The position numbers were made by a program, and so were the translations under genes. Positions 1,468 to 53,656 of a stretch of 64,000 nt of DNA are shown here, piece by piece. The stretch's first letter is position 1. Each line of letters opens with the position of its first letter. The stretch is taken from the NCBI GenBank assembly GCA_016235455.1, contig JACRKZ010000102.1, positions 7,744 through 71,743 of the forward strand, read 5' to 3'. The notes below the pieces were generated by a model, which was given only the letters and a program-made list of their open reading frames with translations, was not told where the DNA came from and did no database searches. This stretch comes from Armatimonadota bacterium (GTDB taxonomy: Bacteria > Armatimonadota > UBA10988).

Positions 1468-2893
1468 CTACGGCGCCCGACGCGGCGACTGCACCGGCGC
1501 GCCCTGCGCATAGGACACGCTGCCATGCGGCGCCAACGTGTAGCCGAAGCGCTTGAGGTACGCCTCGCGCGGTTCGAACCGGTCGCCGATGCGCCGCAGC
1601 GCGGCCTGCAGGCGGCCGTCAAGTTCGTCGCACAGCGCCTTCTGGTCCACCAAGTTGCGCTGCTGATAGGGGTCGGCCAGGTTGTCGAACAGCAACCACG
1701 GCCCATCGAGCCGCCGCGCATAGGTGTACTGGCGCGAGCGGATCATGCGGTACTCAGGCAGCCGCGCGGTGAACGGCGACACACTCATGACCAGCGCATC
1801 GCGGTCCGGCCCGGGCCCTGTGCCGCGCACGACCGGCGCCAGGTTCTCGCCCTCGACCGTCCTGGGCACATCGAGCCCGACCAGCCCCAGCAGCGTGGGC
1901 AGGACATCCGGCGCATTGATCGGCGTGTCGACCACGCGTGGCGCGACGCCGGGCACGCGCAGCAGGAACGGCACATGCGCCGCCTCGTCATAGGGCCACT
2001 GCTTCTGCGTGGGCGAGACGCCATGCGCGCCCATCATCTCGCCGTGGTCGGAGGTGAAGACGACGATGGTGTTGCTGGCCAGCCCGCTCTGGTCGAGCAT
2101 CTCCAGCAGGTCGCCGACGCACTTGTCCAGCGCGGAGCAGTGCCCGTAGTAGCCCACCAGCTCGCGCCGCGCGGCCTCGGCGTGCTCGGGCGCGACGTTG
2201 GGCGCCAGCTTGAGGTCGTTGGGCGAATACAGCTTGCGGTACTCGGCCGGCGCGGTGGCATGGGGGAAGTGCGGCGCGCCGTAGCTGAGGAACAGGCAGA
2301 ACGGCTTGGAGTCGGGCTGTCGCGAACAGACGAAGTCGGTCGCCGCGCGCGTCTGGTCAAAGGCGTCGTAGCCGTCCCAGAAGCGCTTCTCGGGCGAGTC
2401 GTCGGTGTAGTAGTGCGAGTGCGGGTAGTTGTGATCGCATTCCGCGCCGAACCACGTGGCCCAGCCCTGCCGCCGCGCGGGCGGGATGTAGCTGTCGCGC
2501 CCATGCCCATCAAGATGCCACTTGCCGATGTAGGCGGTGTCATAGCCGCCCGCGGCCAGCGTCTCGGCCAGGCAGACCTCGCCGTCGGGCAGATACGCGT
2601 CGTTGAGGAACATGCCGGTCGAGGTCGGATACCGCCCGGTCATCAGCGCCGCGCGATACGGCGTGCAGACGGGGCAGACGGAGACGGCGTTGGCAAAATG
2701 CACGCTCTGGCCGGCGAGGCGGTCGAGGCGCGGGGTCTGCACGTTCGGGTCGCCGGCATAGCCCAGGGCCGAGGCGCGCCATTGGTCGACGAGGACGAAC
2801 AGCACGTTGGGCCGGCGCGCGGGTTGGGCTCGCAGCGCGGGTGCGGCCAGCGCGGCTGCGCCAGCGCTCTGGAGGAGTTGGCGGCGGTTCATG
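1468..2893 (-). CDS. Sulfatase (arylsulfatase family), Tat-secreted
   Basis: ORF 1468..2982 trimmed to the internal ATG giving MNRRQLLQSAGAAALAAPALRAQ (twin-arginine signal). Motifs: VLVDQW, CPVCTPYRAALMTGRYP (Cys-x-Pro-x-Arg FGly site), GKWHLDG, TSDHGEMMG. Confidence 0.85.
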
Positions 2894-4517: not shown

Positions 4518-5470
4518 GGTTGCTCCACCAGTTCGGCGATGCCGATACCGCATTCACCTGCCACCGAGTACAGCAGGTAGACTTGGCCGTCCGTGTCCAC
4601 GAAGATAGCCGGGTCGCGCAGGGCGTTCTCGGGCCCATTGACCGCCCCAGAGGCGGACTTGCGGAGCGGCAGGTCGGCGCCCTCCCACGGTCGCTCGGGG
4701 CGCAGGACCTCTTCCGAGTCGCCCGCGCGCCACTGCCGCCAGTCGCTGCTCAGCGCCAGCTTGCGCCGCAGAACGCGCTCCGGCGCATCGCCTATGTTGG
4801 TGTAGTAGACCCACAGCGTCTCGTCCACGCGATGCAACGCCACATGCCGCGGGCCAGCGCTGTTGGCCTGCTCGTCGCGACCGTCGCTGTCGGGCAGCGG
4901 GTTGCCGCCTTGGACGAACCCGGTCAGGCCGTCGTCCGAGCGGTACATCCGGCCGCCCTTGGCCATGGCGTACCAGGCGTCCTGCCACGGGAAGGCGCGG
5001 AAGTAGAACAGCCCCAACGGCTCCGGCCCGGCCTTGAAGGTCAGGCCGTCGGACGAACGCGCCGCAAACGACATCTGGCCGCCGCCGCCCTTGGCCGGGC
5101 CATGGAAATAGAGCCGGATCTCCTGGCGCAACCCATCCACGTGGGCATCGGGCGAGGCGATGTGGCCCGAGCAGCCGGGCGCATCTCGTAGCGCGAGCAC
5201 GCCCGGCTCATGGATGCGCCAGGGGCCGGCCAGCGCATCGGCGTAGGCCAGTCGAATGTACTTTCCGTTGTGATGCGCGAAGTACAGGTAGTACCGGCCC
5301 AGCCGGCCTGGCAGCCAGTCGGGCACGCGCACGAGCGATGGGCCGTTGATGTTGGCGCCATCCTTGCCCGGCAGCATGTCGGGGCGGATGATCGGCGCGT
5401 CGGTCAGTCGCCGCGCGGCCGGCGCGGCCGCGGTGGCCAGCACGTTGGCGGCAAGCAGGACCGACACCAT
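4514..5470 (-). CDS. Secreted beta-propeller glycoside-hydrolase-like protein (GH43/GH32-superfamily-like fold; family not resolved)
   Basis: ORF 4514..5509 trimmed to the signal peptide MVSVLLAANVLATAAAPAA. Composition with repeated Trp/Tyr-Gly-Asp blades (YLYFAHHNGKYIRLAYADALAGPW, VYLLYSVAG) resembles five-bladed propeller hydrolases. No catalytic residues assigned. Confidence 0.4.
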   Translation of the reverse strand: MVSVLLAANVLATAAAPAARRLTDAPIIRPDMLPGKDGANINGPSLVRVPDWLPGRLGRYYLYFAHHNGKYIRLAYADALAGPWRIHEPGVLALRDAPGCSGHIASPDAHVDGLRQEIRLYFHGPAKGGGGQMSFAARSSDGLTFKAGPEPLGLFYFRAFPWQDAWYAMAKGGRMYRSDDGLTGFVQGGNPLPDSDGRDEQANSAGPRHVALHRVDETLWVYYTNIGDAPERVLRRKLALSSDWRQWRAGDSEEVLRPERPWEGADLPLRKSASGAVNGPENALRDPAIFVDTDGQVYLLYSVAGECGIGIAELVEQP

Positions 5471-30755: not shown

Positions 30756-30771
30756 TGCCAAGCGCTCATTC

Positions 30772-30845
30772 GATCCACAGATGACACAGATGCCACAGAT
30801 CACGGACCCGACAATCTGTGTAATCTGTGTAATCTGTGGATGATC
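30772..30845. repeat. Extragenic palindromic element, copy A (3x CACAGAT heptamers, spacer, 3x ATCTGTG)
   Basis: gatccacagatgacacagatgccacagat cacggacccgaca atctgtgtaatctgtgtaatctgtggatgatc. A long imperfect hairpin with 9-nt periodic heptamers. Confidence 0.8.
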
Positions 30846-31567: not shown

Positions 31568-31585
31568 CGCTCCGGCCGGGCTATG

Positions 31586-31655
31586 ATCCACAGATTATGA
31601 AGATTACACAGATTGGCAGGTCCGCAATCTGTGTGATCTGCGTAATCTGTGGATT
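31586..31655. repeat. Extragenic palindromic element, copy B
   Basis: gatccacagattatgaagattacacagat tggcaggtccgca atctgtgtgatctgcgtaatctgtggat. The right arm overlaps the stop codon (tta at 31654-31656) of the convergent DUF1801 gene. Confidence 0.8.
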
Positions 31656-43483: not shown

Positions 43484-46225
43484 CTACTCGACGGTCAGCG
43501 CCAGATCATCCAGCTCACAGGAGCCGGCCACGTTGCCGGCGCAGATGAACATGACGCGGCTGAGCGTCTGGAAATCGTCGGCCAGCGGCACCTCGGCCCG
43601 CTGCTCGCGGCCGTCGGGCCAGGTCGCCGTGACGACGGCTCGCCGCGCGTCGGCCCGGCCCAGCGTGAACCGCACGCTCAGCCGCAGCCACTCGCCCGGC
43701 GAGAGCTGGCCGAGCGTCTGGCCGCCGGCCGTGACCCGGCCATCGCCGTTGACCTGCGCGCTAGGCCCACCGGCGAACTCGCGGCCGGTCTTGGGCTGGT
43801 AGTCGCGGAACTCGAAGGACACGCCGCACGGCGCGCCGGGCTCGGTTCGCACGCGGCCCGACAGTGTCACCGTGCCCGACGGCACCGGCCTGGCCAGCGT
43901 GTGCGACAGATACGGCAGGAATGAGCGCGTCGCCAGCACCGTGTCCGTCAGTCGCAGGCAGCGCCGGCCCTCCGCCGCCACCGCGTCGGTGACCCCGACA
44001 TCGGCCTGCCGCCCATCGGCCACCGCGACGACGAACTCGCGCGGCACCATGCCCACGGGCACATCCTCCAGGCTCAGCCGGAACCCCGGCACAGGCTCGG
44101 GAATGGCCGCCGGCTTCATCGCGTAGACCGGCGGCGGGGTCACGCGTACCGGCGCGGCCACGTCGCGGTAGTCCGCGCCGCGCCCCGCCTGGCTGGGATC
44201 GAACGGTACGAAGCCCAAGGCCAGGGCCGGCGACCCGGGCTTGAGCCGGAAGTCGCCGTGCGCCGGATCGACAAACAGCGGATCGGCTCTGACCGAGCCC
44301 TGGTCCTGCCCGAGCGCCTGCCATTCGGCCCAGGTCTTGCCCGCGAAGCCCAACGGCAGGCCGGCGGCGTTCCAGTACAGGTTCCCGCGACAGGCCATCA
44401 GCCCCAGCGGCCACACGGCATCAACCAGGTTGGGGCTGGTCGTGTAGCACAGGTTGCGCTCGAAGACGTTGGCCTTGGCGTACGGATTGGCGTAGCTGCG
44501 CACGAACGGCGCGGATTCGCCGTGCACCGGCCCGAAGATGTTGTTGCGAATGGTGTTCTGTGCGCCGCCGTTGATGTTGAACCCGTGCGTGCCCACGTTG
44601 TAGTCGAGGTTGTTCTCGACCAGCATCTCCGACGACCCTTCATCGAGATACAGGCCCAGTTGCCAGTGTTCCCGAGCGTGCGGGCCCTGCCGGTTGTCGT
44701 AGAGCACGTTGCCGGCGATGACCGTCCCCGGCTGTCGGCCGAGCGTATAGATGCTAGCGCCATCGGCCAGCAGCGACACGACGTTGTGAATGCGGTTGTA
44801 CTCGATGCGGTTGCCTCCGCAGGCGGTGGGCTGGTCGCTCCAGTTCCAGCCCACGGCAATGCCCGAATACGGGAAGTTCCAGATTTCGTTGTGCGCGATG
44901 ACCGTGTTGCGTACGATGCCGGCCCAGATCGCGTTGGCCGAGTAGTACATCAGCCCGCCGTCGGAGACCGCGCAGTTCTCGATGCGGTTGCCCGTCGGCA
45001 CTTCCGGCGCGGTGGCATCGCCCTTCATGGCAATATCGCCGATCTTGATGCCGCCGCCGCCCAGGTCATACAGCCGGCAGCCCGAGACACGATCGTCGGC
45101 GCAGCCCAGGCCCAGGCCGAGACCGTAGTTGCCGGTCTGCGCGATGGTGCAGCGCTCCCACACGCAGCCGCGCGCGCCGACCGCCTCGACCGCGGCGGGC
45201 AGGTCGGGCTGGGCCTGGGAGCCGCCGTAGCCCTCACGCGGCAACGGGGTCTCGGTGTGCGAGAACGTCAGCCGCTCGAACCGCACGTGGTCGACGAACC
45301 GGCCCTTGGCCCAGTCGCCCGCGAGCCGCAGCACACGGTCGAGCCGGGGCGCCACCAGTCGCGTGTCGGCCAGCGCCTCGCCTGGCAGGGGCAGGTAGGT
45401 CAGCGTCCCGGTCGGCCGATCCAGATACCACTCGCCCGGCTCGCGCAGCGCCTCGGCCACGTTCTCCACGTAGTAAGGGTTGTGTGGCCCGACCTGGCCG
45501 ATGGCGAAGGTCGGCAGGCCGGTGAACTCGACGATGCGGCTGGCTTCGTCGACGCGCGCGATGCGCAGGCGCGACGAACTCCACATGTGCAGCGCCACTA
45601 CCTCCACATCGTCCAGGTTGCGCCAGGGCCGAATGTCGCCGGCGAAGTAGACGAAGTCCTTCTGTGCCGCGCGGTGCGCCGCGGCTACGCGCCGGGGCGA
45701 GTAGGTCAGCTGGTCCACGGCCAACATGCCGAGATGCGGCCGGTAGCGCCGCTGATAGGGCCCGTTGCCCGTCGAGACGAACAGCTGCCGGAAGGTCCAC
45801 TGGCCCGCCGCCACCTCGGGCAGCGTGACGGTCCACTGGCGCCGGCCGCCGACCGTGCTCTCGCGCAACCCGCTCAGCGCGCGGCCGCCGCTGATCACCG
45901 GGCGCTCGTCGCGATAGGCGCGCCACACGGTCGGCGCCGCGGCCGTGCCGGAGTCCTCCGGCCCCAAGGTCCACGGCGCGTCCAGCGCGTAGGTCCCGCC
46001 GCGCAGCTCCACCGCCACCGGTCGGGCGGCGGCGCGCACTGCCTGCTGAGCGCGCCCGAGCGTGGCGAACGGACCATCGGTACCCGCGGCGTTGGCGGCC
46101 GGCAGCCGGCCCGACCAGGCGTCGCGGCCGGCGGGCGCCACGTAGAAGGTGGTCTGGCCCAGCGCGGCGACGGCACACAAGCCGGCGCACAACAGCGCTC
46201 GCGCGGGCAGTGGTATCGTGATCAT
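43484..46225 (-). CDS. Secreted right-handed parallel beta-helix protein (polysaccharide hydrolase/lyase-like), paralogue of 33279..36410
   Basis: ORF trimmed to MITIPLPARALLCAGLCAVAALGQTT (cat verified at 46223-46225). Beta-helix repeats: NCAVSDGGLMYYSANAIWAG, NTVIAHNEIWNFPYSGIAVGWNW, NRIEYNRIHN. Shares the YYVENVAEALREPGEWYLDRPTGTLTYLP block with the other paralogue. Confidence 0.55.
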   Translation of the reverse strand: MITIPLPARALLCAGLCAVAALGQTTFYVAPAGRDAWSGRLPAANAAGTDGPFATLGRAQQAVRAAARPVAVELRGGTYALDAPWTLGPEDSGTAAAPTVWRAYRDERPVISGGRALSGLRESTVGGRRQWTVTLPEVAAGQWTFRQLFVSTGNGPYQRRYRPHLGMLAVDQLTYSPRRVAAAHRAAQKDFVYFAGDIRPWRNLDDVEVVALHMWSSSRLRIARVDEASRIVEFTGLPTFAIGQVGPHNPYYVENVAEALREPGEWYLDRPTGTLTYLPLPGEALADTRLVAPRLDRVLRLAGDWAKGRFVDHVRFERLTFSHTETPLPREGYGGSQAQPDLPAAVEAVGARGCVWERCTIAQTGNYGLGLGLGCADDRVSGCRLYDLGGGGIKIGDIAMKGDATAPEVPTGNRIENCAVSDGGLMYYSANAIWAGIVRNTVIAHNEIWNFPYSGIAVGWNWSDQPTACGGNRIEYNRIHNVVSLLADGASIYTLGRQPGTVIAGNVLYDNRQGPHAREHWQLGLYLDEGSSEMLVENNLDYNVGTHGFNINGGAQNTIRNNIFGPVHGESAPFVRSYANPYAKANVFERNLCYTTSPNLVDAVWPLGLMACRGNLYWNAAGLPLGFAGKTWAEWQALGQDQGSVRADPLFVDPAHGDFRLKPGSPALALGFVPFDPSQAGRGADYRDVAAPVRVTPPPVYAMKPAAIPEPVPGFRLSLEDVPVGMVPREFVVAVADGRQADVGVTDAVAAEGRRCLRLTDTVLATRSFLPYLSHTLARPVPSGTVTLSGRVRTEPGAPCGVSFEFRDYQPKTGREFAGGPSAQVNGDGRVTAGGQTLGQLSPGEWLRLSVRFTLGRADARRAVVTATWPDGREQRAEVPLADDFQTLSRVMFICAGNVAGSCELDDLALTVE

Positions 46226-46289
46226 CGGGGTGGCTCCGCGGGCCGCCTTCGCCGTCGGGCTCAGCACATCCTTCCGCGGCGCCGGACAG

Positions 46290-46320
46290 GTCGAACCGGA
46301 TCATGACATCCGGTGTCTTC
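46290..46320 (+). promoter_or_regulatory. Candidate ECF-type promoter (GAACC-N17/18-GTC) upstream of the sigma gene
   Basis: tcGAACCggatcatgacatccggtGTCttc lies 20-45 nt upstream of the ATG at 46337. It resembles AAC-N16/17-CGTC autoregulated ECF promoters but with slightly long spacing. Speculative. Confidence 0.2.
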
Positions 46321-46336
46321 ACTTCGGAAACGGTCG

Positions 46337-46918
46337 ATGCACGCCGAGCAGAATCCCACAACCCGAGACGCGGCTGCGTTCGAGGCGGCTTGTGCGCAGT
46401 GGCGTGGCGAGCTGCAGCGGCTGGCGCTGGGCATTCTGCGCCAACCCGACACGGCCGACGACGTGGTGCAGGAGGCGTTGCTGCGGCTGTGGACCGCCGA
46501 CCCGCCACCATCGACCCAGGGCACGCGGTCCTGGCTGCTCAGGGTCACCACCAACCTGGCGCTCAACGCGCTGCGCAGCGCGCGCCGCCGGCCGGCCGAC
46601 CCGGTCGATCCCGCGAGGCTGGGTCTGGCCCTGGCCGCGGGCGCGGGCCTGGCGGCCGGCAGTCAGCCGCCGGCCACGCCGCATCAGGCATTGGTACGCG
46701 CCGAGACCGACGGCCTGTACCGTCGCGCCCTGGCCGACCTGCCGCCTGCTCAGCGGCAGATCGTGTCGCTGGTCTACGAATCCGAGATGCGCCTGCGCGA
46801 TGTGGCGGAGGCGCTCGGGGTGCCCGAGGGCACCGTCAAGTCGCGGCTGCACGCCGCCCGCGCCAAACTGTCGCGCCGCTGGCGCGAACTGGCCCCCGAC
46901 TGGGAGGATGAGTCATGA
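46337..46918 (+). CDS. ECF-subfamily sigma-70 factor
   Basis: Region 2: ADDVVQEALLRLW...SWLLRVTTNLALNALRS. Region 4.2 HTH: MRLRDVAEALGVPEGTVKSRLHAARAKL. Start could alternatively be the GTG at 46313. The TGA stop overlaps the ATG of the next gene (ATGA). Confidence 0.8.
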   Translation: MHAEQNPTTRDAAAFEAACAQWRGELQRLALGILRQPDTADDVVQEALLRLWTADPPPSTQGTRSWLLRVTTNLALNALRSARRRPADPVDPARLGLALAAGAGLAAGSQPPATPHQALVRAETDGLYRRALADLPPAQRQIVSLVYESEMRLRDVAEALGVPEGTVKSRLHAARAKLSRRWRELAPDWEDES

Positions 46919-49881
46919 ACCCCATTCCGCCAACCCCCTGGCACGCCGCCTCGTTTGACCACTGCCTGCGCGGCAGCCTCCCGCGGCTTCTTGCCGAGCG
47001 ACTGCCGTTGAGCGGTTACCACGTCGCGCCCGGCGAGGACGGCCAGGTGCGCGTGACGGTGACCGTCGACGCGGCCGCCGCCGTCTACCACCTGCCGGCG
47101 CCCACGCCGGACGGCGTTTTCCACACGCCGCGCGGACCGCGCGTGGTCACGCCGTTGGTGGCCCATGACGATCTGGCCACGGCGGCGGTGGCCTGCGTGG
47201 GCGAGCAGTTGGCCACCATCGTCGAAACGCGCCTGGGCGTCGCGCCGGCCGACATCCCCTGGGACGAGGCGCTGCTGCGCGCCTGGCTGCCGCTGGACGG
47301 TTGGCTGGCCGAGTTGCTGGCCACCGCCGCGCCGCTGGACGAGCGCAATCTGCTGGCCCGCCTGACGCATCTGCGGCGCATCCGCGTGACCGCCATCGGG
47401 CCCGACGGACCGATCCTGCTGCCCGGTCACTGGGGCCGGGTCTGTCCCGTGGAGTCGCCCGAGGGCGAGAACCTGGGCCGGGTGCTGGTGCTGGCGCGCG
47501 GCGCCGGCATCGCCCACGGCCGTATCCTGCCCGCCGGCGCCGAGCCCGCGGAGCAGCTCGGACCTGGCGCGGCCTGCATCCCGTTCCTGCATCACGACGA
47601 CGGCGTACGCGCGCTGATGGGCGCCAACATGATGCGCCAGTGGCTGCCACCCGAGGCGCCGGAGCCGGCGCTGGTGGTCACCGGCCTGGAGCCCGGTGAG
47701 CCGGCGCTGTGGTGCGGGCGCAACCTGCTCACCGGCTACCTGGATGTGGGCGCCGACACCCACGAGGATGCGCTGGTGGTCAGTGCCTCGGCCGCCTCCC
47801 GCCTGGGCCAGCAGGCGCCGCTGGAGCCCGGTGACAAGCTCAGCAACCGCCACGGCCAGAAAGGCGTGGTCAGCGCGATCTGGCCCGACGCGGCCATGCC
47901 GCGGCTGGCCGACGGCACGCCACTCGACCTCGTCGTCAGCCATCTCGGCGTGCAGACCAGGCTCAACCTCGGCCAACTGCTGGAGGCCGTCGCCGGCCGG
48001 CTGGCCCGCGCGGAAGGCCAGGCCGTGGCAGCGCCACCCTACAGCGGGCCGAGCGTCGACGACCTGCGCCAGCGGCTGCGCGCCGCAGGCCTGCCCGAGG
48101 ACGGCATGGAGCGGCTGAGCCTCGACGGCGCGGCGCTGGAACTGCCGTCGACGGTCGGCTACGTGTACTGGGGCAAGCTCTACTTGCGCGCGGCGCCGGC
48201 CCTGCACAGCCAGCCCGCGGGCCATGCCGGCGAGCGCATGGGGTGGCTGGACCACGCTTGCGTGCGCGAGAGCGGCTGCCGCGCCATCCCGGCCGAATGG
48301 GGCGGTCTGGGCTCGGTGGCACGGCTGGCACCGGGCGAACTCGCCGAGCTGCTGGCCGCCGGCGAGCCGCCACCACTGGGTCCGCCGACGCCCTGGCTGG
48401 CGGCGCTGACGCGGCGCCTGGCGGTGCTCGGCATCGGCGTCGAGATCGACAGTGCCGGCCTGCATTTCGGGCTGCGTGAGCCGGACGACGCGCTGGAACT
48501 GGCCGAGCCGGTGCCGCATCCGTGGCACCGCGACCTGCTGCTGACCCGCCTGGGGCCATGGAGCGGCGACGCCTGGGAGGCCACCCTGGCCGCTAACGCC
48601 AGGTTGGCCCGGCTGCGGGCCGAGGCCGCGCCCGACGCCTTGCTGCAGCCCGCGCGCGGCGCGCTGGCCAGCGCCATCGAGGCGCTGGCGCGGCGGCTGG
48701 TGCGCCGCGAGCACCTGTGCGCCGGCGACCGCGTGGCCTACAGCGGTCGTGCGGTCATCGCGCCCGGCGGCGACCTGTGCTGGGACCAGGTCGGCCTGCC
48801 GCGCGACCTGGCGGAGCCGTTGTTCGCGCCGCTGCTGGCCCGGAGCGGCGAGACGGACTTGGCGGCGGTGATGGCGCGGCACTGGCTGTTGGTGACCCGC
48901 GCGCCGGCCGTGGCGGCCTCCGCTCATGTGGCGCTGCGGCCGGTGCTGGTGCCCGACCGCGTCATCCGGCTGCATGCGCTGACGCTGATGATGCTCAACG
49001 CCGACTTTGACGGTGATCAGGTGGCGGTGATGCTGCCGCTCACCGCCGCCACGCAGGCCGAGGCGGCGCAGCGGCTGAGCATCGGCGCCCACCTGGAGCG
49101 CGATTCAGGCTTGCTGGGCTCGCTGCTGCCGCCCATGTCGGCACGCTGGGGCCTGGCCTGGCTCAGCCTGACCACCGCCGGCCGGCAGCAGATCGCCCAC
49201 CTGCTGGGCTTCGAGCTGCCCGACGATGGCCACTTGACCCGCGCCGGCCTGCTGGAAGCCGCGGCGCAGATACGGCTGCGCGACGGCGTGGACGGCCTGA
49301 TGGGCACTCTCGACGCGTTGACCCGGCTGGGCTTCGCCGCGGCCCGGCGTAGCGGCGCGTCGCTGGCGCCGTTCGCCGGCACCACGCGCGCCCTGCCGCC
49401 GCAGCCGCAAGACGATGATCGCGTGGCCTGGGCGGCCTACGCCGAGCAACTCGTCGAGTGCCTGCGGGCCGTGGAGGACTATGCCAACCCCGACCTCGGG
49501 CCGCAGATCCTCGCCGTCAAGTCCGGCGCGCGCGGTACGTGGCGCTTCTTCGAGCGGATGCTCGGCGGCCAGCTCCTACCCGATGGCGCGGCCGGGCTGA
49601 CCCCGCAGAGGCATTCGCAGATCGAGGGCCTGAGCCCCGAGGAGTACCGCCTGCGCCTGCACTCTGGCCGTAGCGCGCTGGCCATGTGGCTCCAGAGCTG
49701 GACGGCCACCTGCACCAGCATCCGCGAGGGCGCCGGCCCGCATGGCTTCGGCGTGCTGGCGCGCGCCTGCCACTCGGCGCAGCCGGGCGTCATCTTCGCC
49801 CGCGCCGCGCTCACCGGCGAGTGCGACCCCCTGGCTGACGCCGCCAGCCGCCTGTTCGTCGGCGTCGCGGACCGCGGGTAG
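46915..49881 (+). CDS. Single-chain miniature RNA-polymerase-like protein fusing the RpoB (beta) and RpoC (beta-prime) catalytic cores, 988 aa
   Basis: RpoB-type motifs: [68 protein letters not shown]...[66 protein letters not shown]. RpoC-type motifs: [50 protein letters not shown]...[53 protein letters not shown] precedes the ATG at 46915. Confidence 0.7.
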   Translation: [988 protein letters not shown]

Positions 49882-49895
49882 TCATGCCTGAATCA

Positions 49896-49975
49896 GATCC
49901 ACAGATTACGCAGGTTGCACAGACTGCTCAGAGGCCAGTCCGAGCGATCTGTGTCATCTGTGTGATCTGTGGATC
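49896..49975. repeat. Extragenic palindromic element, copy C
   Basis: gatccacagattacgcaggttgcacagac tgctcagaggccagtccgagcg atctgtgtcatctgtgtgatctgtggatc. Lies immediately 3' of the mini-RNAP gene, between convergent genes. Confidence 0.8.
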
Positions 49976-49988
49976 CTCAGGGAGATGG

Positions 49989-51038
49989 CTAGCGATTGGC
50001 GCACCAGGTGCGCAGTGTGGCCAGGATGCGCCGTGCGTCGTCCAGTGGGCGGCCGCCCATGTTGAACAGGAACCGCGTGTCGGGCCGCGCCAGGTCGAGC
50101 ATTTCGCGCACGCCGGCCTCGTCGCGCCAGGCGACCATGTGCACCGTCTCGCCGGCGAACAGATCGAGCGCGGGCTTGGGGCCGGGCGGATACTGGAACA
50201 CGCGGTTGAGCCCGCGCAGCCGCGGCACCCGCGCGAACAGCGGGTAGTGCGCGTCGGCCCGAGCGCAGCAGTGCATCCACATGCCGCCGTAGCGCTCGCT
50301 CATGGCCACCAGGCTGGGCAGGCAGAACTGCTCGAACATGGCCGGCGACAGGCTGCCCGTTTCGTCCTCGGACAGTGAGCAGCCCAGCGCCGGCGGCCCG
50401 TAGGCGGCGCCGGGGCAATGGATGGCGTTGTGGCCAGGGAACGCGCGGCGGAAGTCGTCGAGGAAGCCGGTGAGCAGCGCGTAGGTCTTGTCCACCAGTG
50501 CCAGCACCGCCTCGGGCGTGTCCACCATGGCGATGAACATCTCCTCCTTGTTCCAGATCAGCGCGGCAATGTCGAACGGACTCTGGATGTCCGGGCCGGT
50601 GATCGGCGCGTCAGGCCCCAGTTCGGCCTGCACCAGCTCCGCCAGCTCCCACCAGCGCGCCAACCCGCGACCGGCCGACCAGTCGGGCGTCGGCAAGGCA
50701 TCGGCCTCGGCGGCGGCATGCACGAACGGCAGCGCGGCGGCGTTCGAATCCCGGAACGGCACCACGCGGCAGCCAAAGGCCTCGGCGAAAACGCCGGTGT
50801 GCGTGGTCATCGGCGCCACCGGCACGGTGTCGCAGCCCAGCGCCTCGGTCTGCGCCAGCCAGGCGCGGTACTGAGCAACGATGCCCGGCACCCAATCGCT
50901 CACCGGCCGGTCGGACACCGTCACATCGCCCGGGCTGTCGACGAGGCCGGGCGGATCGAAGGTGATGGCATGGCCGGGGAATGGGCCGCTGAACAGATCG
51001 ATCTGGTACTGACGATTGCGCGCAATGCGATCGGGCAT
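49989..51038 (-). CDS. Hypothetical protein, possibly URO-D-like TIM barrel
   Basis: ORF 49989..51251 trimmed to MPDRIARNRQYQIDLF (cat verified at 51036-51038). GGMWMHCCARADAHYPLFARVPRLRGL is weakly reminiscent of the URO-D family HxCG region. Low confidence in the family. Confidence 0.35.
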   Translation of the reverse strand: MPDRIARNRQYQIDLFSGPFPGHAITFDPPGLVDSPGDVTVSDRPVSDWVPGIVAQYRAWLAQTEALGCDTVPVAPMTTHTGVFAEAFGCRVVPFRDSNAAALPFVHAAAEADALPTPDWSAGRGLARWWELAELVQAELGPDAPITGPDIQSPFDIAALIWNKEEMFIAMVDTPEAVLALVDKTYALLTGFLDDFRRAFPGHNAIHCPGAAYGPPALGCSLSEDETGSLSPAMFEQFCLPSLVAMSERYGGMWMHCCARADAHYPLFARVPRLRGLNRVFQYPPGPKPALDLFAGETVHMVAWRDEAGVREMLDLARPDTRFLFNMGGRPLDDARRILATLRTWCANR

Positions 51039-51114
51039 GGCCGACCTCCCAGCCGCGTAGCATAGCGCGTTTGGGGCGCGGTTAGGTACAATCCCCCGAC
51101 TGGGAGCCTGTGCC

Positions 51115-52149
51115 ATGGCCGCTCGCTGGCTGCGCTGTCTGTTGTTGGTCCTGCCCCTCGCCGCCGGAGCCGCTCCGGCTCGCACCGAGCATGTCAGCGA
51201 TGGCGCCGAACTGATGGCCGCCGTGGCGCGCGGTGGCGGCGAACGCAGCATCGTGCTCGACGCGGGTACCTATGAGATAAGTGGGACTCTGAGCTTCGAG
51301 CGCGTGAACCAGGTAAGCGTGCTGGGCAGCGGCTGGAATACGGTCATTCGCAAGACCGGGCCCGGCCCGGCCATGGCCTTCGCCGACTGCGGCTTCTGCC
51401 TGGTGCGCGACCTGCTGATCGTCGGTGACGGCAAGGCTCAGGCCGGCATCGTCTTTGGCGGCCAGAGCAGCTCCAACACCGTCGACAAGTGCCGACTGGC
51501 CGACTTCCTGCTGAGCGGCATCCGCTTCCAGGGCGAGGCCGCCCGCCCCATGTCGTCCAACGTGGTGCGCGACTGCCACTTCGTCGACAACGCTGCCGCG
51601 CAGCTCTACAGCGAGTACAACAACGACTACGCGATCAGCGGCTGCCAGTTTGGCGCGCACCACTCGACCCCCGCCGCCGGCGCGCAGTTGTTGCACTCGT
51701 CGGCCGGCAACTACACCGGTAACTTCCATTGGGGCAACCAGAACGCGCTACTGCTGGGGCCCGGCAGCAACTTCAACCGCATCCAGGCCAACCGCCTGGA
51801 GGAGAGCCAGCGCGAGGCGCTGATCATCGGCTCACCCGAGCCCAGCCCCGCCTGGTCGGGTCATTGCAGCCTGAACATCATCACGGGCAACACCTTCCAC
51901 ACCAACTCCAAGCAAGAGAAGGGCCGCTACGACGCCATCGCCGCCTACGACGCGGTGGACACGACGTTCACCTCGAACCAGGTGTTCTCGTGGGACTCCG
52001 ACCACTTCCGCCACCGCGCGGCGTTGGCGCTGGGTCGCGGCTGTGGCACGTGGATCGTCCGGGACAACATCCTGCGGCACCACACCGGGCCGGCGCTCGT
52101 GTTCGATGCCGGTTCGGGGCATCTGGTGAAGGACAACCTGGGCCAGTAG
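51115..52149 (+). CDS. Secreted right-handed parallel beta-helix repeat protein
   Basis: Signal MAARWLRCLLLVLPLAAGAAPA. Repeated short beta-helix rungs with Asn/Gly ladders (NTVDKCRLADFLLSGIRF, NVVRDCHFVDNAA, NIITGNTFHTN). Confidence 0.5.
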   Translation: MAARWLRCLLLVLPLAAGAAPARTEHVSDGAELMAAVARGGGERSIVLDAGTYEISGTLSFERVNQVSVLGSGWNTVIRKTGPGPAMAFADCGFCLVRDLLIVGDGKAQAGIVFGGQSSSNTVDKCRLADFLLSGIRFQGEAARPMSSNVVRDCHFVDNAAAQLYSEYNNDYAISGCQFGAHHSTPAAGAQLLHSSAGNYTGNFHWGNQNALLLGPGSNFNRIQANRLEESQREALIIGSPEPSPAWSGHCSLNIITGNTFHTNSKQEKGRYDAIAAYDAVDTTFTSNQVFSWDSDHFRHRAALALGRGCGTWIVRDNILRHHTGPALVFDAGSGHLVKDNLGQ

Positions 52150-52375: not shown

Positions 52376-53656
52376 ATGCGGCGCGCCCCGGAGGACGATA
52401 TGGAACTTCGCGGATCCGTGTCAGGACGAGGGCGTACCCTCACTGCTCGACCAACGACGGTGGTGCTGGGGCTGATGGTGGGTGTGCTGCCCTGGCTGAC
52501 CAGCTGCGGTAGCGCCAGCGATGCCGGTGGCAACCCACTGGCCGCGGCCGGCCCGACGAGTGAAGGCGGCCGGGCGGTCGCCTCGAACCCGTATGTGGTC
52601 ATCGGCTGGAACGATCTGGGCATGCACTGCATGAACCAGGACTTCTCGAATCTGATGATCCTGCCGCCGTACAACACACTGCACGCGCAGGTCATCCGGC
52701 GCGGTGAGGAGCCGCAGATCGTCAGCAGCGGCGTGACGGTGAACTACAGCGTGCCGGGCAACACGCGCTCGAGTACCAAGACGAACTTCTGGCAGTACGC
52801 CAAGGCCCTGACCGGCCTGACCTTGGCCAACGATGTCGGCTTGACGGGCCACCGGCTGGCCGGGACCATGACCGCGACGAGCAATCGAGACTGGAGCGTG
52901 ACCGGCGTGCCCATCACTCCGGTGACCGATGTGGGCGCGCTGAACGCCTACCAGATGGCCAGCATCAGTGTGGCTAGCCGGGGTACCACGGTGGCCAACA
53001 CACAGGCGGTGATACCAGTCTCGTGGGAGATAAGCTGCAATCTGTGTCACAACACGCCGGGCATCTCGCCCGATGTGGACATCCTGCGCAAGCACGACAG
53101 CCTGCACGGCACCCAACTGGTCAAGCAGCGGCCGGTGAACTGCGCCAAGTGCCATGCCGAGCCGAACCTGGGCTCGACCGGCGCGCCTGGCGTCAAGAGC
53201 CTGTCGGCCGCCATGCACGGCTCACACGCCAAGCGCATGGCCTCCGCCAAGCTGACCAACGAATGCTACGCCTGTCACCCTGGCGTCAAGACCAACTGCC
53301 AGCGTGACGTGCACAAAGCCAAGGGCATCACCTGCACCGCCTGCCACGGCTCCATGGCCACGGTGGCCGCGCCGAGTAGGCGCCCGTGGGTCGATGAGCC
53401 GAGCTGCGGCAGCTGCCACAAGCGCGCCGGGTTCGAGTTCGAGCAGCCTGGCAAGCTGTTCCGCGACAGCAAGGGCCATCATGGGGTCCAGTGCGCGGCT
53501 TGCCACGGCAGCCCGCACGCCGTCGGGCCCGCTGTGAACGCGGCCGACAACGCCCAGGCCATCGCCCTGCAAGGTCATGCCGGCCCGATCGACACCTGCA
53601 CGGTCTGCCACACCAAGCGGCCGGACGAGGCGTTCGAGCATCGGCTCGACGACTGA
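52376..53656 (+). CDS. Multihaem c-type cytochrome lipoprotein (7 CxxCH motifs)
   Basis: Lipobox LTSCGS. Haem-binding motifs CNLCH, CAKCH, CYACH, CTACH, CGSCH, CAACH and CTVCH sit in the C-terminal 210 aa. The N-terminal ~200 aa domain is haem-free. Confidence 0.8.
   Translation: MRRAPEDDMELRGSVSGRGRTLTARPTTVVLGLMVGVLPWLTSCGSASDAGGNPLAAAGPTSEGGRAVASNPYVVIGWNDLGMHCMNQDFSNLMILPPYNTLHAQVIRRGEEPQIVSSGVTVNYSVPGNTRSSTKTNFWQYAKALTGLTLANDVGLTGHRLAGTMTATSNRDWSVTGVPITPVTDVGALNAYQMASISVASRGTTVANTQAVIPVSWEISCNLCHNTPGISPDVDILRKHDSLHGTQLVKQRPVNCAKCHAEPNLGSTGAPGVKSLSAAMHGSHAKRMASAKLTNECYACHPGVKTNCQRDVHKAKGITCTACHGSMATVAAPSRRPWVDEPSCGSCHKRAGFEFEQPGKLFRDSKGHHGVQCAACHGSPHAVGPAVNAADNAQAIALQGHAGPIDTCTVCHTKRPDEAFEHRLDD

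Follow-up and report, generated by a model that had tools for sequence, protein, structure and literature searches.

A stretch of 64,000 nt from an Armatimonadota bacterium (GenBank assembly GCA_016235455.1, contig JACRKZ010000102.1, positions 7,744 to 71,743 of the forward strand; hereafter 'the window', to which coordinates without a locus label refer) encodes a single-chain protein of 988 amino acids (aa) in which the catalytic cores of the two large RNA polymerase (RNAP) subunits of bacteria, beta and beta-prime, are fused head to tail. We refer to this protein as mini-RNAP. Its gene (46915..49881, plus strand) is coupled to an upstream gene for a sigma factor of the extracytoplasmic function (ECF) type (46337..46918, plus strand, 193 aa from the ATG at 46337), and the pair lies behind a conserved ECF-type promoter. 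The observation is real, and the gene is neither a remnant of rpoBC nor an assembly chimera. The reading that fits best, and to which we give even credence, is that the two proteins would form a sigma-programmed, self-transcribing minimal RNA polymerase.

An earlier note on this DNA, made from the letters alone, had proposed that an RpoB-like and then an RpoC-like core follow one another in a single chain, and the domain order agreed: Rpb2 domain 3 (residues 141–197), Rpb2 domain 6 (295–423, E 4e-29) and Rpb1 domain 2 (654–719, E 1e-16) were found in that sequence with Pfam. A family profile of 50 members, complemented by residue frequencies counted in 201 distinct full-length members, aligned colinearly to Escherichia coli beta 471–580, 649–707, 789–821, 1054–1148 and 1177–1341 (the last residues of beta), and then to E. 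coli beta-prime 266–513, 588–640 and 717–797. Of the solved relatives, the best were bacterial beta, at E 1e-39, and bacterial beta-prime, at E 1e-17; archaeal subunits ranked behind them. The cut-offs that define housekeeping subunits were not reached (TIGR02013 for rpoB, 153 bits against a cut-off of 801; TIGR02386 for rpoC, 76 against 963). AlphaFold2, supplied with the family alignment, predicted a compact fold with no disordered segment (mean predicted local distance difference test score, pLDDT, 91.9; predicted template modelling score 0.89). Foldseek matched this model only to beta and beta-prime chains of RNAP in the PDB, the bacterial ones best, at a probability of 1.00, and among viral models only to separate giant-virus subunits. 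The core of the note's reading, a small RpoB–RpoC fusion in one chain, holds.

The N-terminal 140 residues, where Pfam and plain profile searches were blank, were considered as a novel domain. This was rejected when local profile–profile comparison, using canonical RpoB and RpoC profiles built from 64 ordinary rpoBC loci, revealed a reduced beta1 domain (protrusion) in which residues 11–80 correspond to E. coli beta 32–147 (46945..47154; probability 90%, E 1.7e-6). The reduced beta1 domain is confined to the mini-RNAP family and is always N-terminal. It is followed on the plus strand by the beta fork and conserved regions D–F (residues 141–262, equivalent to beta 471–580 and 649–707; 47335..47700), defined by the profile alignment, Pfam Rpb2_3 and column conservation, by the motif that would supply the ligand of the second Mg ion (residues 283–285; 47761..47769), and by the beta double-psi barrel, which carries K308, K316 and the funnel residue R349, along with switch 3 and the C-terminus of beta (residues 298–520, equivalent to beta 1054–1148 and 1177–1341; 47806..48474).

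The beta-prime half opens with a junction segment (residues 525–551, equivalent to beta-prime 103–129; 48487..48567) that has moderate support in the profile comparison (E 5.6e-4, probability 30%) and from which the preceding zinc finger has been deleted. The beta-prime clamp helices (residues 552–600, equivalent to 266–309; 48568..48714) and switch 2 (residues 605–617; 48727..48765; S610, G611 and R612 each in 46 of the 50 profile members) come next. The beta-prime double-psi barrel (48880..49074; Pfam Rpb1_2) holds R662, P664 and the Mg triad D697/D699/D701, and towards the C-terminus lie the funnel motif KSGARG (residues 869–874) and the bridge helix (residues 905–942, a helix at 908–940 in the model; 49519..49740), again all on the plus strand. 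Both barrels (Rpb2_6 and Rpb1_2) and the bridge helix, which aligns to beta-prime 757–799, are thus present, as in the two-barrel superfamily.

Beta 148–470 and 822–1053, and beta-prime 1–102, 130–265 and approximately 800–1328, are without counterpart in mini-RNAP. Besides the two barrels and the remnant of beta1, mini-RNAP has kept the fork, switch 2, switch 3, the funnel and the bridge helix, as well as a small clamp with both clamp helices. It has lost the beta2 lobe, the whole flap (beta 822–1053), the zinc finger, the zipper/lid and the rudder, and likewise the rim helices, the jaw and the trigger loop, insertions included. The earlier note was right that the zinc finger, trigger loop and jaw are absent, but not that the beta lobes are wholly gone, given the reduced beta1, nor that the first clamp helix is missing. 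In the model the two clamp helices span residues 552–569 and 574–595, and they are strongly conserved: N561 is found in 49 of the 50 profile members, R566 in 45, P573 in all 50, and L576 and L584 in 49 each. N561, R563, R566 and P573 align to E. coli beta-prime N276, R278, R281 and P288.

The chain ends in a conserved motif (49786..49863, plus strand) whose segment conservation of 0.74 is as high as that of the barrels, with E969 in 192 and D971 in 198 of the 201 members. This C-terminus is probably a retained region H of beta-prime (1329–1354). The match of residues 958–983 to region H is suggestive and weak (E 0.008 in a regional comparison; 0.1 when all of beta-prime was compared, which still left it the top match; values up to 0.24), and region H was also the top match against E. 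coli beta-prime alone. A remnant of the first trigger helix was considered for residues 968–983 and rejected, the profile comparison with the trigger-loop region giving E 0.88.

Eight active-site residues are invariant across two-barrel polymerases, namely the three Asp of DxDGD and the equivalents of Rpb2-D837, the two basic-loop Lys, Rpb1-R446 and P448 (PMC2919709). All eight are present in mini-RNAP (D697, D699, D701, D285 accompanied by E284, K308, K316, R662 and P664), at frequencies that span 180–199 of the 201 members, and they are likewise conserved in the 50 profile members. The Mg triad (in NADFDGDQ; 49003–49017) is intact in approximately 97% of members, with D697 in 196, D699 in 199 and D701 in 198; K308 and K316, the equivalents of beta K1065 and K1073, are found in 194 each, R662 in 180 and P664 in 189. 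The triad and the beta Lys had been reported as intact from the window alone, and the orthologues retain them. D285 is found in 188 members, with Glu in seven more, and E284 in 169. These two residues belong to an F/H-E-D motif at 283–285 (H283-E284-D285, 'THEDA', in the window) that aligns to beta E813/D814, whereas the 'HDD pair' previously taken for the Mg ligand of beta is a separate conserved block.

The DNA-dependent subgroup of these enzymes is further marked by equivalents of Rpb1-G750 and K752 and Rpb2-R1020 in the funnel, and by a basic switch 2 residue equivalent to Rpb1-K332 (PMC2919709). Funnel R349 is kept in 196 of the 201 members, and within KSGARG the profile members retain G871 (38/50) and R873 (39/50). 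In switch 2 the S-G-R residues are conserved, but the column of Rpb1-K332 is not. Conservation of K308, K316, R312, R349, D285 and the bridge helix extends across at least seven phyla.

The sigma factor is the dedicated partner of mini-RNAP. It contains Pfam Sigma70_r2, r4 and r4_2 and scores 80.1 bits with TIGR02937 (cut-off 42.9); only regions 2 and 4 are present, as is typical of the ECF class (group 4), and its closest solved structures are SigW, SigH and SigL. A sigma orthologue was found directly upstream of the polymerase gene, on the same strand, at 16 of 16 genome loci and at three of four further metagenomic loci (19/20). In the reverse check, a profile of 14 sigma orthologues found a tight subfamily, the best 120 matches all scoring at least 297 bits, and each of five sampled orthologues on long contigs was followed by a mini-RNAP of 1024–1052 aa. 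The adjacency seen in the window is conserved from both sides. The partners have also diverged together: the pairwise identities of sigma and polymerase correlate over 24 loci with a Mantel r of 0.95, which none of 2000 permutations reached (r 0.75 for between-clade pairs). The downstream gene contains no anti-sigma domain by Pfam, and neither an anti-sigma gene nor a third conserved gene was seen around the loci. A semi-recurrent GFO/IDH/MocA oxidoreductase neighbour was considered as a third partner and rejected as probably coincidental.

The two genes are joined at a coupling junction (46902..46918, plus strand) that consists of the Shine–Dalgarno sequence GGGAGGA at 46902–46908 and an ATGA overlap at 46915–46918, in which the mini-RNAP ATG (46915–46917) overlaps the TGA of the sigma open reading frame (ORF; 46916–46918). 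These elements and the uninterrupted 988-aa ORF are all in the sequence as first described, and the mini-RNAP gene, as also stated there, does not adjoin ribosomal genes. At 73% G+C, this DNA contains long spurious ORFs in other frames, such as an antisense 772-aa ORF at 46774–49092; homology identifies the plus-strand ORF as the gene. The GC content of the module equals that of the flanks. The identical protein has been deposited as a 'hypothetical protein' from an Armatimonadetes metagenome-assembled genome.

GGGAGGA doubles as the code for the W-E-D tail of sigma. A conserved W-E-E/D tail was considered as a docking motif and set aside, because it coincides with TGGGAGGA, the ribosome-binding site of the polymerase gene, which explains its conservation more simply. 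The same TGGGAGGA-plus-ATGA junction is found in loci L001 and L010. TGGGAGGA is a stretch of DNA under two constraints in its own right, encoding the W-E-E/D tail and serving the overlapping gene as a ribosome-binding site (window 46900–46918; L001, L010, L011, L012, L013). In most lineages the junction is an ATGA overlap or a spacer of 1–18 nt, and it is longer in Poribacteria; in one Poribacteria genome (L005, 5714–5976) a 263-nt insert lies between the sigma and polymerase genes, compared with approximately 70 nt in its relatives.

Upstream of sigma, a motif scan identified an ECF-type promoter of the form GAAC-N14-CGGTGTC (46293..46317, plus strand), with a −35-like GAAC at 46293–46296 and a −10-like CGGTGTC at 46311–46317. 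The earlier note had named a candidate promoter of the form GAAC-N17-GTC, which is corrected here. The sigma ORF as called by program begins at a GTG at 46313; since this GTG lies inside the −10 element, the ATG at 46337 is most likely the start, which corrects the one assumed in the note. The exact motif has a single match in the window. Among complete genome loci, 14 of 15 carry it once, just upstream of sigma, compared with one of 65 unrelated loci, and it is also found in L162, L163 and L167–L171. The consensus, TGAAC(y)t-N11-gCGGTGTCa, is placed 20–100 nt upstream of where sigma starts, in genomes that range from approximately 40% to 73% G+C, and it is shared across phyla.

In two independent lineages (L164/L165, from Chthonomonadaceae, and L176/L238) the promoter directly precedes the polymerase gene, and the upstream sequence covered contains no sigma; the promoter copies are at 5147–5171 in L164/L165, 826–852 in L176 and 1631–1657 (minus strand) in L238. 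In these lineages the sigma factor is presumably encoded elsewhere. Because the promoter is kept before the polymerase where no sigma gene lies upstream, the polymerase gene appears to be its constant target. When metagenomes were scanned for a 17-base version of this motif, the sites listed, at least 120, were mostly chance matches, 50 of them inside ORFs; the only downstream genes that recurred among these sites were those for sigma and mini-RNAP. No wider regulon emerged from this weak test. Three different metagenome contigs (L199, L203 and L211) share an identical stretch 3′ of a chance-looking motif copy, which is not coding-like and has no Rfam match. Taken together, the position and conservation of the motif suggest that sigma uses TGAAC-N14-CGGTGTC and is autoregulated.

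The two-gene unit occurs in at least nine bacterial phyla. In a search with the whole protein, at least the best 120 matches were of 988–1079 aa, with the same domains and 40–47% identity over 99% of the length (one at 66%), and the named matches among those listed were all unannotated, being labelled 'hypothetical protein' or with bare Pfam names. The listed matches came from Armatimonadetes, Phycisphaerae/Planctomycetota, Chloroflexota, Gemmatimonadota and Chthonomonadaceae; a scan of species-representative genomes added Poribacteria, Latescibacterota, Planctomycetales, Caldilineaceae, Anaerolineae and Myxococcales. Carriers in several phyla have closed chromosomes of 4.8–6.7 Mb; closed genomes with the module include OY762266.1, OZ241983.1, OZ244235.1, OZ220089.1 and JAWKOU010000001.1. 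The N-terminal 140 residues, which as a query avoid canonical RpoB, recovered 152 clusters (at 50% identity) from 1.84 billion cluster representatives, and the complete proteins of these clusters were of approximately 990–1100 aa with the domain at the N-terminus, no other architecture being seen. The flanks of the module vary and are not conserved between phyla; in most cases they hold metabolic genes.

How might such a pair function? In a canonical ECF holoenzyme, sigma region 2 sits on the beta-prime clamp helices and region 4 on the beta flap tip, while the linker passes the lid and enters the exit channel for RNA (PMC6648896). YonO, a single-chain two-barrel protein without a trigger loop, is nevertheless a processive DNA-dependent RNA polymerase (PMC5467207). 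We propose that mini-RNAP arose from a bacterial beta::beta-prime fusion by the loss of nearly all peripheral domains, and that region 2 of its sigma would bind the retained clamp helices. Sigma regions 4 and 2 would recognize TGAAC-N14-CGGTGTC, and the two-barrel site (Mg triad, E284-D285, K308/K316 and R662, with the bridge helix, fork, switches 2 and 3 and funnel) may then make RNA without a trigger loop, in the manner of YonO. The module's own operon is the sole target identified, so that the predicted outcome is a self-amplifying loop, extended to any unlinked genes that share the promoter. A sigma-programmed polymerase is favoured because a clamp coiled coil has been kept in an otherwise stripped enzyme, because the sigma is exclusive, co-diverging and coupled, and because the catalytic centre is conserved. 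On this reading mini-RNAP would have polymerase activity, with the biological role outlined here, and sigma would bind it and not solely the host core. The fuller claim, that mini-RNAP and its ECF sigma amount to a second cellular RNAP (a two-protein, promoter-specific, self-transcribing enzyme that works beside the five-subunit core yet independently of it, occurs in at least nine phyla, and would be the smallest sigma-dependent RNAP known and a natural minimal form of the multisubunit enzyme), stands in our estimation slightly short of an even chance.

Several findings weigh against this proposal. The docking sites for region 4 and the linker (beta flap tip, beta-prime zinc finger and lid) are deleted, and only the clamp-helix site is kept. 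The sigma looks like an ordinary two-domain ECF factor and its promoter keeps the ordinary ECF −35/−10 geometry, as is expected if sigma works on the host core. No second target promoter was found in the window, in approximately 300 kb of related loci or among the 120 metagenome sites listed. Within the protein, the switch 2 Lys equivalent to Rpb1-K332 is not conserved: its column, at residue 605, varies, with R606 next to it in 35 of the 50 profile members. Finally, approximately 3% of members have a substituted Mg triad, which reads N-F-D-G-D in L002, L008 and L168 and is more degenerate in P0189, P0225 and P0193. These copies, substituted in the D697 column, could be inactive, or could reflect sequencing errors in long-read assemblies; their existence makes a non-catalytic role possible in some lineages. 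With no site left for region 4 and a promoter of ordinary geometry, two rival explanations stay alive. The options that the note had hedged between, an autonomous transcription module and a decoy for sigma, are still the two main candidates.

According to the stronger of these, which we regard as unlikely yet a serious contender, the sigma is an ordinary ECF factor that acts on the host core, and mini-RNAP is the active but sigma-independent effector of the operon, for instance by synthesizing primers or short RNAs, by copying RNA templates, or by transcribing at times when the host enzyme is blocked. The canonical promoter spacing and the absence from mini-RNAP of the flap tip, zinc finger and lid that region 4 and the linker would need are consistent with such a division of labour, as are the conserved catalytic residues and the L164/L165 and L176/L238 lineages, in which the polymerase stands alone behind the promoter with no sigma upstream. 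YonO, too, has no identified specificity factor (PMC5467207). What a sigma-independent effector leaves unexplained is the retention of the clamp helices when nearly all other peripheral elements are gone, and the existence of a sigma subfamily that is found only with the polymerase gene, to which it is translationally coupled.

The gene 3′ of an ECF sigma gene usually encodes its anti-sigma factor, and ATGA coupling is typical of sigma/anti-sigma pairs. It is conceivable, therefore, that mini-RNAP is a core-enzyme mimic that buffers its partner through the clamp helices in a negative feedback, with chemistry secondary or vestigial. The gene order and ATGA overlap, the lack of a conventional anti-sigma, the retained clamp helices and the few members that remain full length with a substituted Mg triad would all accord with a mimic. 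However, a pure decoy would not maintain the Mg triad in approximately 97% of members, nor the other catalytic residues and the bridge helix across so many phyla, and a 110-kDa protein with a confidently predicted, complete active-site fold is a costly way to display one coiled coil. We consider a core mimic distinctly less probable than a sigma-independent effector, and doubtful in its own right.

A further explanation, that mini-RNAP belongs as a YonO-like polymerase to some mobile element, to a prophage or to a defence system and is only transient in chromosomes, draws on its patchy spread across phyla, on the self-contained module with varying flanks, and on the transposases and PIN toxins that flank L167 and the IS200-type transposase that adjoins L164. 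Searches of mobile DNA speak against it. The family had no member in 2.9 million viral contigs, and neither the 50,697 phage records nor the 72,556 plasmids searched yielded a match over 80% or more of the query; PHROGs contained generic RNAP families only. No PADLOC defence-system model matched the polymerase, and the sigma gave marginal helix-turn-helix matches only. With flanks that are mostly metabolic and a GC content equal to that of its surroundings, an origin in mobile DNA seems very improbable.

That the gene is a decayed or frameshifted rpoBC remnant, or a chimera of assembly, as its length of about one-third of rpoB plus rpoC and its metagenome-assembled source might suggest, is a negligible prospect given the 152 clusters and hundreds of homologues of equal length and architecture, the closed chromosomes of several phyla that carry it, the uninterrupted ORF with its model at a pLDDT of 92, and the conserved partner gene and promoter.

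Directly after the stop codon of the mini-RNAP gene lies an 80-nt palindromic hairpin (49896..49975, no strand assigned) with arms of 37 nt that are 78% complementary and, as RNA, a folding energy of −64.4 kcal/mol (z −7.5). The earlier note had counted this element as part of the system, a view that we reject: related copies occur in the window at approximately 30771–30841 and 31585–31654, marking it as a dispersed genome repeat, and other module loci carry unrelated terminator hairpins instead. The element belongs to an intergenic palindromic family of approximately 70–80 nt with GATCCACAGAT...ATCTGTGGATC ends, built of ATCTGTGT-like units in inverted runs. It resembles a genome-specific repeat of the repetitive extragenic palindromic (REP) or miniature inverted-repeat transposable element (MITE) type, which may act as a terminator or RNA stabilizer at this locus.

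Two further features of the surroundings deserve mention. A 426-aa ORF rich in CxxCH motifs (52376–53656, plus strand) resembles a multihaem cytochrome, and sits among beta-helix (GH141/NosD-like) genes at 43484–46267 and 51115–52149. Genes resembling uroporphyrinogen decarboxylase (URO-D) are found near the module at three unrelated loci (window 49989–51251, minus strand; L163, 4125–5195; L166, 15073 onward); this proximity may be a coincidence in genomes rich in such genes.

If mini-RNAP and its sigma do form an active holoenzyme, the working rule of one RNAP core per bacterium would be overturned. Such an enzyme would be a natural experiment on which parts are dispensable for sigma-dependent initiation (flap, zinc finger, lid, rudder, trigger loop, jaw, alpha and omega), and would offer structural and synthetic biology a compact, sigma-programmable and host-orthogonal polymerase that is kin to the bacterial enzyme and not to that of T7. 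For evolutionary studies, mini-RNAP represents a living case of a reduced beta/beta-prime core, of a kind usually just inferred, and it has a counterpart in the yeast plasmid protein Orf6, which was reduced independently. If mini-RNAP proves to be a core mimic that buffers sigma, anti-sigma mechanisms would gain a new class. In both cases, approximately 150 clusters of a conserved family labelled 'hypothetical protein' gain a testable function.

The earlier note knew of no described system of this kind, and our search of the full-text literature likewise found no description of the mini-RNAP family, nor of any ECF group that is partnered by an RNAP-like protein, although the subscription literature may hold a mention. 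An RNAP-like neighbour is not mentioned in the main text of the ECF reclassification paper. Compared with canonical RNAP, mini-RNAP is clearly of bacterial derivation, with approximately 40–50% identity in the barrel blocks and bacterial relatives far above archaeal ones, and it shares the catalytic residues, bridge helix, fork, switches 2 and 3, funnel and clamp helices. It differs in being one chain of 988 aa, as opposed to two chains that total approximately 2750 aa and are joined by alpha2 and omega, and in lacking most of the clamp, the beta2 lobe, the flap, the zinc finger, the zipper/lid and the rudder, together with the rim helices, the jaw and the trigger loop. Its ECF partner, GAAC −35 and CGT-like −10 recall the ECF holoenzymes, such as those of E. 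coli sigmaE and Mycobacterium tuberculosis sigmaH.

Full-length beta::beta-prime fusions (PRK09603 and PRK14844; approximately 2840–2890 aa) share the head-to-tail single chain, but are complete housekeeping enzymes, against whose cut-offs of 5372 and 4632 bits mini-RNAP scored 131 and 139. The split RNAPs of phages (a metagenomic Caudovirales lineage, PMC7481178, and jumbo phages) are likewise of a reduced multisubunit type and encoded outside a host rpoBC operon. They differ in being viral, in having 22–27% identity to mini-RNAP, and in their organization as separate genes of approximately 900 and 1000 aa, beta-prime then beta, or as giants of 1455–2804 aa; the fused form of approximately 1000 aa was not found among the viral contigs scanned. 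Many of the IMG/VR contigs (L082–L161) carry an adjacent beta-prime-like gene (approximately 900 aa) and then a beta-like gene (approximately 1000 aa), and a few have single ORFs of 1455–2804 aa with both halves.

YonO of the Bacillus prophage SPbeta is similar in being a single-chain, two-barrel protein of approximately 100 kDa with no trigger-loop homology and few of the domains of multisubunit RNAPs (PMC5467207; PMC2919709), and in working beside the host enzyme, as mini-RNAP putatively does. As judged from its description, it is set apart by being phage-encoded, by having few of the catalytic residues common to multisubunit RNAPs and by having no known specificity factor (PMC5467207). Mini-RNAP is chromosomal, has a dedicated sigma and retains long alignable beta and beta-prime blocks, whereas YonO would be barely alignable.

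A notable parallel in design is Orf6, encoded by the linear plasmid pGKL2 of yeast, which at 982 aa is an Rpb2::Rpb1 fusion with the same subunit order, a nearly equal size and approximately half of each parent deleted (PMC2919709). Orf6 has kept the barrels, bridge helix, protrusion, fork, hybrid-binding region and switch 3, and has lost the trigger loop, rudder and lid (PMC2919709). It is, however, the enzyme of a cytoplasmic plasmid in a eukaryote, with a presumed origin from eukaryotic-type subunits, and has no sigma (PMC2919709). The resemblance, compared by description, looks like convergent reduction. Mini-RNAP falls within the two-barrel polymerases and, should the holoenzyme be confirmed, would represent a new type of bacterial transcription system.

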